This document shows, one piece after another, positions 44,253 to 49,992 of a DNA stretch of 64,000 nt. Position 1 is the stretch's first letter. Every line of letters begins with the position of its first letter. This stretch comes from Catajapyx aquilonaris (Eukaryota). The stretch covers positions 1 to 64,000 of the forward strand of contig JYFJ02002021.1 of the NCBI GenBank assembly GCA_000934665.2. Reading direction: 5' to 3'. A program made the position numbers and the translations under genes. Under the pieces are notes generated by a model. It did no database searches and was not told the DNA's origin. It saw only the letters and a program-made list of their open reading frames with translations.

Positions 44253-46533
44253 CTAGAGCTCATCTTTATTAGATTTCTCTTCCGCCATGATCGTGCTGTT
44301 AGTCCAGTCCCTGAATGCCAATAGGGCCACATTTTTAGCACCAATGCAACTCATTTCCATTGCGCTTGCTGCCCATTCAATCGCATTGACGTGGTACAAG
44401 TTGGGAGCCAGAATAAAGGAGCCTAACTCCTGGTTTGACGAGTAGTGTGGGTACGCCCTCCAATTCCTCACGACCACCTCATTGATATCCTCAAATAGGG
44501 CTTCCAACTCCTCCTTGGTCAGCTCAGCCTTCGAGAACACCTTCCACACCTGCGGGTACTCATCCTCCTTATCACTTATGTAGTCGACTGGAGTCACTCG
44601 AGCCAGACTGTTGTACGCCAGCCCATCTTTACACACCAGGATCTGATCCGCTTCTGGTCTGCCCTCCTTCCAGCCAAAGTGACCTGCATTCAACTTCCCA
44701 TTCACCTGCAAACAATTACCTACAGATATGTATGCACATTAATATTTTCTAGCACTGTCATGAAAATTATGGCTGAGCCTTGGACCCTTCAGGTGACAAG
44801 TTATGAACCACAAACACACTACATACCGTACTTGTGTACTCACCAGAGTGTTTACCGTCACATGATACTCTCCAATTGTGTGTGGTTTCGGGATGTTTTG
44901 GAATTCAATGCCAGATTGGGTCAACGGCGCGGCCAAGATGACCAGGTCGTAGATTTTTTCTTGCCCGGATTTTGTCTTGATGGAATATGTACCGTCGTCA
45001 AGTTGTGCTACGCTTGCAACATGATCTTTGATGAGATTACCATCTGTGCCTTGTAAAAGTCTCTCCGGGATTTGTTTGTTGCCGCCAAACACTGACCACA
45101 CACCAGAATCAGCTCCAGCCATAGAGACACTTCCTGCGAAGATATTTTATCATGTCACTAAAAACAAATGGATCTAGCGAAAGAACGTTATACACATAAG
45201 AGATGTAACAGACTTGCCAACAAATTTCTGTGCCGATAAGGTTTGTCCGTAATTAACCATGAGTGCAGACATAATTATCTCATCCGTGAAATGGTGCCCA
45301 TACCCATCGCTACGAAAACCATCTTCACTCGAAGTCTCGGTCATGTTTATGAAGCTGGGGTCCATGGCTGTCAGAAGTTCTGCGACACTGTTAAAAGCTT
45401 CACCTTTTGCTTGCGCCGTGTATATTCTGAAAGTGAGACAATTAAGTGTTATTGTACGCGTGATTACCGAAACAACATCAATAACTTCACAAAGGACATC
45501 TTGATATTGGAAGTAACAAAGCCAAAAATGAATTGATTATTATCATTGTATTGACAGAAATATTTCTGTCTCAGAATATGTTTACCATAAATTGCTGGTT
45601 AGTACAAAATTACACGGATGTACTCTGAGAAATGTCATGCGTAATTTTAAACTCACCTGTCAAACTTGTCCAGCATAGAAGAAATGGCCAGTTCCATTTT
45701 CATCATATTGAATCCATACTGATACAAAAATTTAGCAGCCGTAATTATCATGGAATTGCTCTCAACAAACACGAACTTCTCCCCATTGTATATTCCAACT
45801 TTCTCGTTCCCCGACTCCTTCGCCTCCAGATCTGAAATTCAACACGTCGACATTAACGACAATCCAATTAAAAATAAAACCCGCTACTCACCGACAAGCT
45901 TAGCAAACTGACGGACATACTGGTTCCTCGGATGGATAATACTTCCACCTTCCTCGTACTCGTACCCGCTCACATTCACAGTCCGCAACCGTCCGCCAAC
46001 TTGGTCCGCTTCGTACACATCAATTTCACATTTCCCTTTTCCAAAAAGCTGTTCCAAAAAGTAAGCCGACGACACTCCGCCAATTCCAGCACCAATTATT
46101 CCTGAGAAAGTTAAACGAAGACATTATTAAGTCCGCAGAAGTAATTGTTGTATGACAAATTTGCCTTACATCCCTAGTATGGCATCACGAAACGCCCTGC
46201 GACATCCAATGGATATTTAAATGGATCTCCACCGGATATCTACATTGAATCTCCACCGGATATCTACATTGAATCTCCACCGGATATCTACATTGAATCT
46301 CCACTGGATATTTCAATATCCATAGGATGTCACTGTGCTACTTATTCTGATATTAAGACTTATCATAATTACATTAATGACAATTAATAACATGAGACTG
46401 ATGCAAATTATTGACATTTTTGGCACAAAATGGAATACTTGCCGATGCTTGGAACGTCGTCATTTCCTTCGTTAACCAAGGCTGTCATAAATGGGGCCGA
46501 AAGAAGTAGCAGCAACGAGCACTCGAATTTCAT
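44253..46533 (-). CDS. PCYOX1: Prenylcysteine oxidase 1-like (signal peptide, FAD-binding, C-terminal KDEL)
   Basis: Exons (minus) 46533-46443, 46101-~45892, ~45831-45657, ~45428-45218, 45133-44832, ~44706-44253. IIGAGIGG, VGGRLRTV...EEGGSIIHPRN, VNYGQ, GVWSVFGGNKQI, WKVFS, WRAYPHY, NAIEWAASAMEMSCIGAKNVALL, KDEL*. Confidence 0.93.
46201..46331. repeat. 24-bp tandem repeat (3.5 copies) bracketed by 17-bp inverted repeats; probable MITE relic in PCYOX1 intron 1
   Basis: CTCCACCGGATATCTACATTGAAT at 46227, 46251, 46275 and partial at 46299. GACATCCAATGGATATT (46201) is inverted to AATATCCATAGGATGTC (ends 46331). Confidence 0.8.
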
Positions 46534-46980
46534 TATTAAATGTATATATTTTTGCGTAATTTTTTTAAATTGCGTTCACGCACTTTTTCGACTTGCAAAA
46601 TTTTGGAACCGCGCGCGGTCGGCGACAGTCAACTGTTCTCTCAGACTGAAAAAAAAGTGATTGCGACAAATACATTCTTTATCTTGCCAAATAATATTAA
46701 GTTAATCTTTTTTTTTAAAAAAAAGTAGATAAGATATGTTTTTTAAAAATAATTTTATCATTCCATTTCGAATAGCAGCTTCATTTGACTGCTACAATAA
46801 GCTGCGACTGTTAACAGCGTTTAGAGCCATCCCATTAGCTGCTTATTTTGAATGGATCGAAAAATCACGTCGCGTTTGTCGGCCATGACAGGTTGGGGGG
46901 GAAAAAAATACGTGTCGTCTTTTCTTTTTTGATTCTTCGGCATAATTTTTGGCAATAATTTTGGTTCCGCCCGCTGCTAA

Positions 46981-47235
46981 ATGTCTGAACCAAAGCAGAT
47001 CAGCTTCAAGGAGTTCCTCCCACGCAAAGGGCTGCTCCACCAGGAGGACGTCCCTACATACGCTCTGTGCAAGCCTAAGCTGATGCCCCTCAAGTCCTTC
47101 ACACTGGAGAAGCTTGAAAAGGTTCAGAAAGAAGCGCAGGGAAAAGTTGCACAGGCCAGGAGAGAAGAGGAGGAGGAGGAAGAAGAAGAGGAAGAACAGG
47201 AAGGGCAAGGGGTAGTTGAAAGGGAAGAGTATTAA
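46981..47235 (+). CDS. BBIP1: BBSome-interacting protein 1 (BBIP10/BBS18)-like, intronless, 84 aa
   Basis: FKEFLPRKGLL..ED....LCKPKLMPLKSFTLEKLEKVQKEAQ matches the hallmark BBIP10 motif (EVLPKQG...LCKPKL.PLKS.TLEKLEKM). Acidic poly-E tail. Confidence 0.88.
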   Translation: MSEPKQISFKEFLPRKGLLHQEDVPTYALCKPKLMPLKSFTLEKLEKVQKEAQGKVAQARREEEEEEEEEEEQEGQGVVEREEY

Positions 47236-47253
47236 ATAATAAAAGGAAGAACG

Positions 47254-49992
47254 ATGGGGGCCGGACCTTTAGTTGTCGAGATTGTTCTGACGTTCCTTCT
47301 GGCCGCCGTTCTGCTGTACCAGTACGGGAACTGGCACAGGCATCACGTGGTGGTCACCGTGTCGGTGCTGGTCGCCTGGTACTTCTCGTTCATCATCGTG
47401 TTCATCCTGCCTCTGGACGTCTCCGGGGTGAGTCCGCACCTTTCGTAATGGACAAAGTGTTGTCCATTGCAACATTGCATGGCAACATGTTGACATTCAT
47501 GCCAACATTGCGTGGCAACATGTTTGACATTCATGCCAACATTCCATGGCAACATGTTGACATTCATGCCAACATTGCGTGGCGACATGTTGACATTCAT
47601 GCCAACATTGCTTGGCAACATGTTGCCATTCATGCCAACATTGCATGGCAACATGTTGAGATTCATGCCAACATTGCGTGGCAACATGTTGAGATTCATG
47701 CCAACATTTCGTGGCAACATGGTTGCCATTGCCATGGCTACGGGGTTGTATAGCGATGTATTGATGTGCTGATTGTTTAATTTTTTCAGACTATATACAA
47801 CCAGTGCAGCAAGGAGCATGAGCTGATTTTTACGACGACTACTGCGGCGACGTTGTTGCCAAATGCGACTAATATTACGATTGATTCGGATAATATTACG
47901 TACTTGTCTAATGAGACTGTTGTGCCTGAGGAGAATCCGTGCGTTCAGCCGTGGAGTTATGTCGATAGGGATATCATGTGCGAGCTGTGGCGAGTTGTGT
48001 ACTGGACTTCGCAATGTTTGACATGGTAATAGTTTCGTACTCTCAACGTGAATTTGGGGATGTCTAATGTACTTGTCGTTTCAGGCTGATACTCCCGCTG
48101 ATGCAGTCGTACACTCAGGCAGGCGATTTCACCGTGGGAGGCAAACTCAAGTCTTCCCTTATAGACAACGCCATCTACTACGGGTCATACATGTTCATAT
48201 GCGGGATCCTGCTGATATACATTGCAATTAAGCCGATGCCATTGGACTGGTACGTTGCCTTTCGTTGGGATGTCGCACATTTGTTGCAACGGTTTTCCTT
48301 CAGGGCGCAACTGAAGGCCATAGCTGCAGCCGCAAGCAACACGTGGGGCCTATTCCTCCTGGTTCTGCTGTTGGGCTATGGGCTGGTCGAAGTCCCCCGC
48401 ACTCTGTGGAACTCGAGCAAGCGGGGATTCACCCTGCAATATGCATACTTCAAAGCGGCCAAGCTCAGCCTGGAAAGAGGCGAGGCGGAAGAAGCTCTGG
48501 ATGACGTCCTGGAGAGCCTTCTGGCTGCTTGCGAATCAGTCCGGGATGGAGGGAGGATGAGCGGGGTGCAATCGAGACAGAACGTGGAGACCATCCTGCA
48601 GAAAGTTCCTACCGAGCTCAGAGACAGGATGAACAGGAGGCCTCCACCGGACGACATCCCTGTTGAGCCTCTTTCGGAAAAGGCCCTGGTGAGTATCCAC
48701 TAACCACGGCTGGTCAATCCGTAAAGCAAACTTTCCTTTCAGGTCCGGCTGCACCGCCAGACCATCAAGGCCTTGCAACGTCACCACAGGACAGAGACCC
48801 AGTGGGGTCTTCTGATGGATGCGATCCTGGATCTGGAAGACATAAACCGCAACGAGGGCAGCAATGACCGGTGCTTCAAGCCGACATTCCCGGTGACCAG
48901 ACGTCCACGCTGGCTCTGGTTCTGGTACACTGCGAACGTGGAGTGGTACTGGAAGTGCCTACTGCGCAGCTACGTCCGGAAGGTCACCGCGGTTGCCCTG
49001 GGCATCCTCTCCGTCTTTGTCGTATGGTCGGAGGTGACCTTCTTCAACGAGAAGCCTGTGCTCTCTCTTTTCGCCGTGTTTGTCAACGTGGCCAAGCAGT
49101 CATACGACTACCTGTCTATTGAGCTCATATCCTCAGCTATCATCGGGTACCTCTGCGTGTGCGCATACTACACCATCTTCAAGATCAGGGTACTCAACTT
49201 GTACTACCTGGCACCGTACCACCAAACGGACGAGTACAGCCTCATCTTTTCTGGGATGTGAGTGACGTCCATCGATGTTTTATCGATCATACGAGTACTG
49301 TAACTTTGACTTGTTGCAGGTTGTTGTGCCGTCTGACTCCTCCGCTGTGCTTAAACTTCCTGGGCCTCGTGCACATGGATTCACATGTGATTAAGGATGC
49401 ACATCTTGAGGCCTGCTACACTAAGATCATGGGCCACATGGACGTGCTGTCCATTGTATCGGATGGCTTCAACGTGTACTTTCCGATGGGCATCCTGGCC
49501 CTCTGTCTGGCCACCTACTTTGACTTGGGTTCCCGTCTCCTCACCCTCCTCAGCTTCCAGCAGTTCATTGGCGACAATGACATCACGGCCAACTTGGTGG
49601 ATGACGGCAGGGAGCTCATCCGAAGGGAGAAGAGGAGAAGGCAGAGGGCCGAGGAGTCCTCCCAGCGGCAGAGGGACTTCCAGGAGAAGTTCGGAGGCCA
49701 CTCAGCTTACAGGAGCGCAAGGCAGAGAGCCGAGGAAAGAGGTACTTCTGTGGGATAAAATCAACACGGGTTTAAGATTCCACTCATGCCTTTAATTCCC
49801 ATTCCAGTACGTAATTTGAAGAGGACGGACTCGACAGAATCAGCCCGTGCTGAGTTGCTTCGAGACGCTGAGCCAATTGACTATATGGGCACAGTTCATG
49901 ATGCGAGGGGGCAGCAGCAGATGGGTGAACCTTCGGAGGCACCGTCTGTCCGACCGGGGCCTCCGCCTAGGGGGATTTTTGATGACGTGTGA
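47254..49992 (+). CDS. LMBRD2: LMBR1 domain-containing protein 2 (multi-pass membrane protein)
   Basis: Exons 47254-47427, 47790-48025, 48085-48249, 48304-48688, 48743-49257, 49320-49741, 49808-49992. [96 protein letters not shown]. Confidence 0.95.
47468..47735. repeat. 33-bp minisatellite, ~8 copies, in LMBRD2 intron 1
   Basis: Unit GCCAACATTGCGTGGCAACATGTTGACATTCAT at ~47468, 47501, 47535, 47568, 47601, 47634, 47667 and 47700. It contains the palindrome CAACATGTTG. Confidence 0.95.

Follow-up and report, generated by a model that had tools for sequence, protein, structure and literature searches.

Dicistronic genes are a known feature of the fly genome. In D. melanogaster 159 dicistronic pairs are recorded, only 45 of them exclusively dicistronic, and many have monocistronic alternatives (PMC4528330). 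According to FlyBase, ribosomal scanning fits some of these pairs and does not fit most (PMC4528330). File S1 of the same work gives CG42511 and CG8135 the same extent, labels them 'all di/polycistronic' and places 141 nt between the stop codon of one and the start codon of the other. CG8135 is the Drosophila orthologue of LMBRD2 (PMC10409296, PMC13004026). Its knock-down by RNAi causes a male-fertility defect, and the Unknome paper that describes it calls LMBRD2 'poorly understood in any species' (PMC10409296). In a 2025 survey, BBS18 (BBIP1) stands apart from the other insect BBSome genes, which are well conserved (PMC12491567).

Have these two genes been discussed together? Neither CG42511 nor its identifier FBgn0260237 is mentioned in the main texts searched, and phrases of the type 'BBIP1 Drosophila' are likewise missing from them. 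CG42511 does not occur in the supplements of PMC10425847 and PMC12491567, nor CG8135 in the conserved-uORF paper of Hayden and Bosco and its supplements. Literature combining BBIP1 with LMBRD2 was irrelevant in the passages covered; LMBRD2 with words ending in 'cistronic' gave no match, and BBIP1 with such words none that was relevant by title or by the start of the abstract, among the matches listed. A conserved coupling of the BBSome and LMBRD2 appears to be undiscussed in print.

The locus described here lies in a window of 64,000 nt from Catajapyx aquilonaris (contig JYFJ02002021.1 of assembly GCA_000934665.2, positions 1 to 64,000, forward strand). As in the fly pair, an LMBRD2 orthologue lies on the same strand downstream of a small partner whose sequence is unrelated to it; CG42511 is a putative BBIP1. 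The spacer is 18 nt in the window as against 141 nt in the fly. We put at roughly two in three the probability that the locus is the orthologue of a conserved dicistronic gene, with one mRNA carrying both BBIP1 and LMBRD2.

Layout of the locus

The features are collected in Table 1. Re-reading the sequence bore out every start and stop that the first-pass annotation had assigned to BBIP1, the spacer and LMBRD2, with the BBIP1 TAA at 47233-47235. The spacer, ATAATAAAAGGAAGAACG, is in frame, free of stops and contains the AATAAA as claimed; it also lacks a pyrimidine-rich acceptor, no pyrimidine tract preceding its AGs. Nor did the start contexts differ from those first described: the BBIP1 ATG sits in tgctaaATGt and the LMBRD2 ATG in agaacgATGg, with a single further ATG (47083) between the two starts. 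The donor GT of LMBRD2 exon 1 is at 47428. GC content is 0.358 in 46500-46999, and an ATG at 46885 falls just outside the RNA-like contig that begins two positions later. The divergent neighbour is identified as PCYOX1 by minus-strand ORFs downstream of its exon 1, which match Prenylcys_lyase (PF07156).

Table 1. Features of the BBIP1-LMBRD2 locus, in window positions (X1, the RNA-like run)
Feature	Position	Strand	Evidence
PCYOX1 exon 1 (start codon 46533), divergent neighbour	46442..46553	-	X1 record 1 covers 46442-46553, then spliced loose end
Presumed divergent promoter region, 333 nt, AT-rich, between outermost contig ends	46554..46886	.	Without X1 contig cover
5' leader of RNA-like contig, without ATG	46887..46980	+	X1 record 2 begins 46887
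BBIP1 (BBS18/BBIP10) CDS, intronless, 84 codons plus TAA	46981..47235	+	Pfam PF14777
Inter-cistron spacer, 18 nt, with AATAAA 47238-47243	47236..47253	+	X1 record 3 colinear back to 47241, no foreign leader
LMBRD2 coding exon 1	47254..47427	+	Pfam LMBR1 profile positions 3-56; X1 contig spliced 47427 -> 47790
LMBRD2 intron 1, with 33-bp minisatellite 47470-47730 (7.8 copies)	47428..47789	+	
LMBRD2 coding exons 2-7	47790-48025, 48085-48249, 48304-48688, 48743-49257, 49320-49741, 49808-49992 (TGA)	+	Unique GT-AG solution

The two proteins

Both proteins score above their Pfam thresholds, and the identities first proposed for them stand. The upstream product matches BBIP10 (PF14777) with 87.4 bits against a cut-off of 26 (E 4.7e-25), residues 1-64 aligning to profile positions 1-63 of 64, and its 84 aa lie within the size expected of a BBIP1 (about 60-100 aa). 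The core LCKPKLMPLKS..TLEKLE is present, and an alignment of 10 sequences has 21 invariant columns. The ORF is that of a conserved protein gene. The ATG at 47083 is the codon of the invariant Met35. Position 48 is Val in the window and Met in at least 90% of the aligned relatives, and the acidic poly-Glu tail is specific to the window sequence. From its family membership, the protein would be incorporated into the BBSome.

The downstream gene model, the sole GT-AG solution, has an open frame of 693 aa; the 54-nt in-phase intron at 48250-48303 was placed from homologues. Beyond the first exon, the ORFs match the LMBR1 profile (PF04791) at positions 106-278, 299-448 and 470-510 of 510. The closest relatives among the best 120 of 1139 matches are LMBRD2, not LMBR1, LMBR1L or LMBRD1; identity in this set is 51-66%, and those with a protein name are entered as LMBR1 domain-containing protein 2 (or its homolog) or as LMBR1-like membrane protein.

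Linkage in other genomes

Is the linkage of the two genes conserved, as the first-pass annotation asked? It is, in part of the sample. Of 68 BBIP1 loci drawn from metagenome contigs, 14 show an intronless BBIP1 ORF that is followed, at a distance of 13-98 nt, by a same-strand LMBRD2 exon 1. Judged by LMBRD2 similarity, the linked loci are cockroach-like (93-100% to Periplaneta over exon pieces) or ant-like (about 95%), with two unplaced; the 14 also include the contig L032, which is aphid-like in its BBIP1. Recurring in several divergent lineages, the tight adjacency is far beyond chance. In all 50 of the other BBIP1 loci with 300 nt or more of downstream sequence the linkage is absent; it is, for that reason, lineage-specific. 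The PCYOX1 neighbourhood is not shared: a PCYOX1 match occurs in 0/68 loci.

The aphid-like contig (2810 nt) begins with a leader of 342 nt and goes on to BBIP1, a spacer of 16 nt, an LMBRD2 ORF of 655 codons without interruption and an AT-rich tail. Introns are present, by contrast, in the window and in those other linked loci whose contigs extend into later LMBRD2 exons. The point at which the leader of L032 ceases to match L031, a related genomic contig, falls directly behind a TTTTAG acceptor and 6 nt ahead of the BBIP1 ATG; on account of this exact departure L032 has the look of a dicistronic cDNA that has been spliced. Three of the best 120 of the 1139 LMBRD2 homologues (two from scarab beetles, one from a butterfly) carry PF04791 and PF14777 together. 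Since these sequences join the N-terminal part of BBIP1 to LMBRD2, the genes abut in these three insects too.

Do such joined proteins reflect a real product? The first-pass annotation had raised a fusion by TAA readthrough; if such a BBIP1-LMBRD2 protein were the functional product, the spacer of the window would act as its in-frame linker. The spacer is indeed stop-free and in frame, but a shared frame has a 1-in-3 chance, and about three quarters of random sequences would leave any one frame open over six codons. None of the 14 related loci preserves the frame relation, several of their spacers contain stops, and for this reason the fusion is rejected. LMBR1 is found in 0/60 longer BBIP10-containing proteins, and the three fused database entries leave out a portion of LMBRD2 exon 1, much as gene-prediction artefacts do. 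A readthrough product is barely credible on this evidence.

Could the spacer itself be a functional element? In the cockroach-like group it is conserved at 91-99%, as compared with 95-99% for coding sequence and 82-94% for intron or upstream sequence; falling between the coding and non-coding ranges, it is too close to call. In cockroach-like and ant-like loci the LMBRD2 ATG is preceded, at 7-16 nt, by A-rich words of the AATAAA or ATTAAA type.

RNA evidence in Catajapyx aquilonaris

A single run was found for this species, X1, which is small, was used as Logan contigs, is RNA-like by its splicing and has 0.48 of sampled words present; no run registered as RNA was among those listed. On 46320-47445 it gives three spliced, RNA-like contigs, at 46442-46553, 46887-47155 and 47241-47427, the second of which continues into a masked GAG repeat. 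Positions 47197-47240 are uncovered by X1 contigs and none bridges BBIP1 and LMBRD2, which is counted neither for nor against co-transcription. Because nothing in X1 spans this interval, we infer co-transcription in this species rather than observe it. The single BBIP1-LMBRD2 transcription unit first proposed has strong support from the comparative side, namely from the linked loci, the aphid-like contig and the FlyBase annotation of the fly pair, and has no bridging contig here.

The spliced LMBRD2 contig extends back to a point 6 nt from the BBIP1 stop codon, carries no foreign 5' sequence and is colinear with the genome past both AGs of the spacer. This bears on the idea of an operon like those of nematodes or tunicates, in which cleavage at the AATAAA would split a dicistronic precursor and the LMBRD2 portion would be trans-spliced at a spacer AG, giving two monocistronic mRNAs. 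The spacer holds the AATAAA and AGs at 47244-47245 and 47248-47249, and spliced-leader trans-splicing occurs in some crustaceans. Against this stand the colinear contig without a foreign leader, the BBIP1 contig, which shows no loose 5' end in X1, and the missing pyrimidine tract before the AGs. Rfam, run on the whole window, returned 0 matches, spliced-leader RNA included. The same arrangement also occurs in insect-like loci, and leader trans-splicing is not known from insects. Such an operon seems very improbable.

A second possibility is that two transcription units overlap: LMBRD2 would be made mainly from an mRNA of its own, starting late in the BBIP1 coding sequence or in the spacer, and a short BBIP1 mRNA would end via the spacer AATAAA or a later signal, with dicistronic RNA as a minor by-product. 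The AATAAA and its counterparts in cockroach-like and ant-like loci would suit this reading, as would the monocistronic alternatives of many fly loci (PMC4528330); the gap between the X1 contigs is compatible with an LMBRD2 start inside the 3' end of BBIP1. On the other hand, the fly pair is annotated as wholly di/polycistronic (PMC4528330), the cDNA-like aphid contig carries both ORFs, one mRNA is the simpler account of a 13-98 nt gap kept in several orders, and none of the contigs listed for X1 at the spacer has a loose end of the poly(A) type. The evidence from initiator motifs is weak. Inr-like TCAKTY occurs at 46758 and 46781 (+) and at 46644 (-) and is absent from 46787-48308 on both strands, hence from BBIP1, the spacer and exon 1; the motif is not enriched in the window, with 190 found against 192 expected. 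On balance we consider two overlapping units unlikely.

A possible route to the second protein

Under the dicistronic reading, transcription would start from a promoter within the 333-nt region, shared with the divergent PCYOX1, and yield a single mRNA made of a leader of roughly 94 nt or longer, the 84-codon BBIP1, the 18-nt spacer and the 693 codons of LMBRD2 from seven coding exons. The contig ends at 46553 and 46887 fit the promoter shared with PCYOX1 that the first-pass annotation proposed, whereas the neighbourhood, seen in none of the related loci, does not lend it comparative support. The first AUG would then serve BBIP1. That both coding sequences are translated from one transcript is suggested by one line of evidence, the protein-level conservation of the two ORFs.

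How would ribosomes reach LMBRD2 in the window? The preferred route for this species would be leaky scanning past two weak BBIP1 AUGs to a stronger one. Positions -3/+4 are T/T at the BBIP1 start, C/C at Met35 and A/G at LMBRD2, which fits. The scarcity of ATGs, by contrast, is not significant: no out-of-frame ATG was found where permuting synonymous codons predicts 0.49 (P about 0.5), and shuffling of mononucleotides gave P 0.067 for at most one ATG. In related loci 5-9 ATGs lie between the two starts, some of them inside the spacer. Several of these loci carry a purine at position -3 of the BBIP1 start, and its weak context is confined to the window. Leaky scanning is accordingly not the general mechanism, and the part of the original proposal that stands is a route plausible only for this species. 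The alternative would be reinitiation after the TAA 18 nt upstream, likelier in insects with a strong BBIP1 start and many internal AUGs. An 18-nt spacer after an ORF of 84 codons is unfavourable for classical reinitiation.

What the gene pair may mean

Why would the two genes stay together? One may speculate that the dicistron is ancient, and that cooperation between its products has preserved it in different insect orders and in at least one lineage beyond the insects sampled. LMBRD2 would then serve the BBSome as partner, cargo or regulator during ciliary or GPCR membrane-protein trafficking, and a common mRNA would set the ratio of the products at translation. We regard this as doubtful. 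A complex prediction for the LMBRD2 and BBIP1 of L032 scored 0.00 ('no answer'), which is evidence neither way. If the idea of an ancient unit were true, published insect LMBRD2 knock-downs, such as the CG8135 RNAi with its male-fertility defect, would also remove BBIP1. More generally, if all transcripts are dicistronic, as FlyBase has it for the fly pair, LMBRD2 RNAi or deletions in insects also hit BBIP1, and the CG8135 phenotype needs ORF-specific alleles for this reason.

Other consequences are practical. A BBIP1 ORF of 60-90 codons in the 5' part of an LMBRD2 mRNA is easily missed or mis-fused in annotation, and three public insect models do fuse the two. The long-term coupling of a BBSome subunit with LMBRD2 is a concrete, testable lead to LMBRD2 function. 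Spacers from 13 to 141 nt with differing AUG content form a natural series on how animal ribosomes reach a second cistron.

Comparison with known systems

Which of the described systems does the locus resemble? The bicistrons of green algae that use leaky scanning (PMC7896298, PMC11892635) share with it two conserved ORFs and a tiny gap between them; in the window the first AUG is weak and a single further AUG comes before the second ORF. The window differs in being animal, and its paucity of AUGs is compatible with chance and is absent from the related arthropod loci; weak context together with AUG depletion as a conserved property, the mark of the algal type, is not what is found here. Spliced-leader operons of nematodes and tunicates likewise have a poly(A) signal near the downstream start and a tiny intercistronic distance. 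Unlike them, the window shows no acceptor tract, and in X1, the one run, there is no non-genomic leader, the contig being colinear through the spacer.

The closest likeness is to other animal dicistronic genes. The fly pairs (PMC4528330), Sloth1/Sloth2 (PMC9681215) and human two-protein transcripts (PMC13303939), as presented in these sources, also place a small conserved protein upstream of a larger one. What defines such a gene at the DNA level, two non-overlapping conserved coding sequences on the same strand with a short gap, is seen in the window and in its linked relatives alike. A mature transcript with both coding sequences is represented among the relatives, by the cDNA-like aphid contig and the FlyBase annotation, and by no bridging contig in C. 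aquilonaris. The window products, unlike those of other animal dicistrons, come from separate families, each well known: one is a subunit of the BBSome, the other a multi-pass membrane protein of the LMBR1 family. Animal dicistronic genes being already known, the window locus adds one more, ordinary case of a conserved gene pair that has drawn little notice.

Layout of the locus

Re-reading of the window bore out what the first-pass annotation had described: the two ORFs, the 18-nt spacer and the LMBRD2 start. The upstream ORF matches BBIP10 (Pfam PF14777) at E 4.7e-25 and 87.4 bits, above the cut-off of 26; the downstream one is an LMBR1-family N-terminus that matches Pfam PF04791 from profile position 3, with the rest of the profile, to position 510, matched by ORFs further on. 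A single GT-AG solution gives LMBRD2 seven coding exons (47254-49992, 693 aa) and introns of 54-362 nt. Most of intron 1 is occupied by a 33-bp minisatellite (47470-47730, 7.8 copies, 91% matches) that generates long spurious ORFs on both strands. The 54-nt intron at 48250-48303 (GTACGT...TTCAG), called solely from comparison with homologues, is in phase, and its retention would leave the frame open and add 18 residues. In BBIP1, a GAG/GAA run (47156-47211) encodes an acidic poly-Glu/Gln tail absent from all aligned relatives.

Features of the BBIP1-LMBRD2 locus in the window, and BBIP1-LMBRD2 spacers in linked loci from metagenome contigs
Feature	Position or spacer	Strand	Description
BBIP1 ORF	46981 to 47235	+	ATG to TAA, 84 codons
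Inter-ORF spacer	18 bases after BBIP1 stop	+	ATAATAAAAGGAAGAACG
LMBRD2 first exon ORF	start 47254, GT donor at 47428	+	second ORF
PCYOX1	upstream of BBIP1	-	Prenylcys_lyase PF07156
L003, L004, L007, L018, L019, L054	79 nt to LMBRD2 start		6 loci
L013, L014	77 nt to LMBRD2 start		2 loci
L009, L011, L012	70 nt to LMBRD2 start		3 loci
L032	16 nt to LMBRD2 start		1 locus
L050	13 nt to LMBRD2 start		1 locus
L053	98 nt to LMBRD2 start		1 locus

Conservation of the pair

How widely are the two genes kept together? An alignment of BBIP1 from the window and nine relatives was used to fetch 68 loci with flanks from metagenome contigs, and linkage was scored by tblastn with the window's LMBRD2 exons and by ORF tracing. 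Adjacency in relatives, which the first-pass annotation had marked for checking, is kept in 14 of the 68: LMBRD2 exon 1 lies directly 3' of an intronless BBIP1 ORF on the same strand (in L054 the ORF is truncated by the contig start). BBIP1 ORFs from one locus in each of five lineages (L003, L009, L032, L050, L053) exceed the Pfam cut-off. Among the other 54, tblastn found no LMBRD2 match in 50, each with at least 300 nt downstream; the remaining four have less than 300 nt. One locus with a short downstream flank, L031, aligns with L032 across the spacer as far as the start codon of LMBRD2, where its contig ends. Most loci without the linkage belong to a single large group whose BBIP1 is of another type, about 97 aa long.

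Which lineages carry the pair? LMBRD2 pieces were compared with named database proteins. Those of the 77-79-nt group are 93-100% identical to Periplaneta americana over exon pieces, those of the 70-nt group about 95% identical to ants, and the L032 BBIP1 is closely similar to the C-terminal portion of a model from Aphis glycines. Identity of the window's LMBRD2 to the seven named insect LMBRD2 proteins compared is just 53-60%, against 64-72% among the less diverged of those insects; the source of the window is probably an arthropod that lies outside the insects sampled. The organism names given for the best 120 of 1139 LMBRD2 homologues are, we judge, all insect genera, and three of these 120 proteins contain an LMBR1 as well as a BBIP10 domain (Popillia japonica, Holotrichia oblita and Leptosia nina). 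These entries (P0127, P0139 and P0170; two from scarab beetles, one from a butterfly) fuse an N-terminal part of BBIP1 to LMBRD2 and omit the real N-terminus of LMBRD2. The dicistronic layout has probably misled gene prediction here, and fusions of this sort imply that the two genes lie side by side in beetles and a butterfly too.

In the cockroach-like loci L003, L007, L013, L018 and L019, the 77-79-nt spacers are 91-99% identical among contigs, a conservation intermediate between exons and introns, and hold 2-3 ATGs with tiny ORFs ending ahead of the LMBRD2 start. In an unrelated eukaryote (L068, 9935-11328, and L067), a 369-codon ZIP zinc-transporter ORF (PF02535) begins 80 nt past the end of a 68-codon BBIP10 ORF (PF14777, E 5e-9) and in the same orientation; BBIP1 may here be closely paired with another membrane protein, or the genome may simply be compact. 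At L059 (205-1080), a 59-codon BBIP10 ORF precedes a same-strand HTH_3 ORF (161 codons) by 213 nt.

Evidence for a shared transcript

Are the two ORFs carried on one messenger? The sole public run with the stretch, X1, is available as contigs, its kind not being on record; over 46320-47445 these behave like RNA. One covers PCYOX1 exon 1 (46442-46553) and is then spliced onward; a 310-nt contig runs from 46887 across BBIP1 into the GAG/GAA repeat coding the poly-Glu tail; a 703-nt contig spans 47241-47427 and then joins to the opening bases of LMBRD2 exon 2 (47790). Could LMBRD2 instead receive a trans-spliced leader at the spacer? The 703-nt contig ends within the spacer, 6 nt past the BBIP1 stop codon and ahead of the spacer's two AG dinucleotides, and carries no foreign 5' letters; such a leader is unlikely. 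No X1 contig on 46320-47445 bridges 47197-47240, a hole in cover that speaks neither for nor against co-transcription. The RNA contig breaks off in the low-complexity run at 47156-47211, which was masked in contig mapping.

Contig cover stops at 46553 on the PCYOX1 side and resumes at 46887, which leaves 333 nt for a divergent promoter region between PCYOX1 and BBIP1. The head-to-head neighbourhood behind the proposed shared promoter is not conserved, with a PCYOX1 match in 0 of the 68 loci. On the PCYOX1 side, just past the end of its exon 1, lies a 24-bp tandem repeat (46211-46311, 4.2 copies, 93% matches). An ATG at 46885, two bases ahead of where the BBIP1 contig begins, starts a 15-codon ORF (TGA 46930-46932), which would be an additional uORF if the true start site is further upstream.

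L032 (2810 nt) consists of a GC-rich 342-nt leader, BBIP1 (343-570), the spacer, LMBRD2 and an AT-rich tail. Its LMBRD2 ORF (587-2554, 655 codons) is uninterrupted; introns follow exon 1 in the window and in the remaining linked loci long enough to include later LMBRD2 exons. Similarity of its leader to genomic L031 ends exactly after the L031 TTTTAG, 6 nt before the BBIP1 ATG, the pattern expected of a spliced 5' UTR; from its structure, L032 may well be a mature dicistronic mRNA caught in assembly.

In fly, CG42511 and CG8135 have identical extents in the FlyBase polycistronic list (PMC4528330, File S1, rows 90-91), marked 'all di/polycistronic', 'unrelated' proteins and '141 nt bet. stop/start'. 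Excerpts of PMC10409296 and PMC13004026 give CG8135 as the LMBRD2 orthologue, and one of PMC5700813 states a BBS18 counterpart for Drosophila. Comparative data suggest that CG42511 is fly BBIP1; searches for CG42511 or FBgn0260237 found no mention in literature main texts, and those of supplements were also empty. For the window locus we infer co-transcription and give the dicistronic reading a probability of about 0.68.

Translation and alternative products

How would ribosomes reach LMBRD2? The first-pass annotation offered leaky scanning or reinitiation, and the start contexts in the window fit the former: T at -3 and +4 for the BBIP1 AUG, C at both positions for the sole other AUG ahead of LMBRD2 (the invariant Met35 codon), and A at -3 with G at +4 for LMBRD2. 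Met48, nearly invariant elsewhere in the 10-sequence alignment, is Val here. Statistically, however, the scarcity of ATGs gives no support to selection for leaky scanning: zero out-of-frame ATGs, against a mean of 0.49, is an outcome to be expected of this protein (P about 0.5), and mononucleotide shuffles give P 0.067 for at most one ATG. In related loci, 5-9 ATGs separate the two start codons, some of them within the spacer, and a purine occupies position -3 of the BBIP1 AUG in several, so leaky scanning cannot be common to all. The natural alternative is that ribosomes resume scanning once they have terminated. We favour a model in which leaky scanning past the BBIP1 AUGs would operate in the window species and reinitiation in insects. 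According to excerpts of PMC4528330, some fly dicistronic pairs fit a scanning mechanism and the majority do not.

A BBIP1-only mRNA may end at the spacer AATAAA; A-rich AATAAA/ATTAAA words also stand ahead of the LMBRD2 start codon in two of the insect groups, but may be just an A-rich start context. A fusion by readthrough of the TAA, also suggested earlier, was rejected: a common frame is kept in 0 of the 14 related loci, and LMBR1 occurs in 0 of 60 longer BBIP10 proteins.

Comparison with known systems

In the library searched, no paper was found linking either gene to di-, bi- or polycistronic expression, and the excerpted text of a 2025 survey of insect BBSome genes (PMC12491567) does not mention the arrangement. 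A messenger for a BBSome subunit and LMBRD2, conserved across insect orders and beyond, seems undescribed. The pair matters for annotating the small BBIP1 ORF, bears on the reading of LMBRD2 knock-downs, such as the male-fertility defect under CG8135 RNAi (PMC10409296, in excerpt), and is a lead toward LMBRD2 function. The locus resembles green-algal leaky-scanning bicistrons (PMC7896298, PMC11892635) in spacing and start contexts, but those are defined by AUG depletion, which it lacks. The window locus is the orthologue of a dicistronic gene in FlyBase, with CG42511 taken as BBIP1, and belongs to a well-known animal class (159 fly pairs in the excerpted PMC4528330); it is therefore ordinary as a kind.
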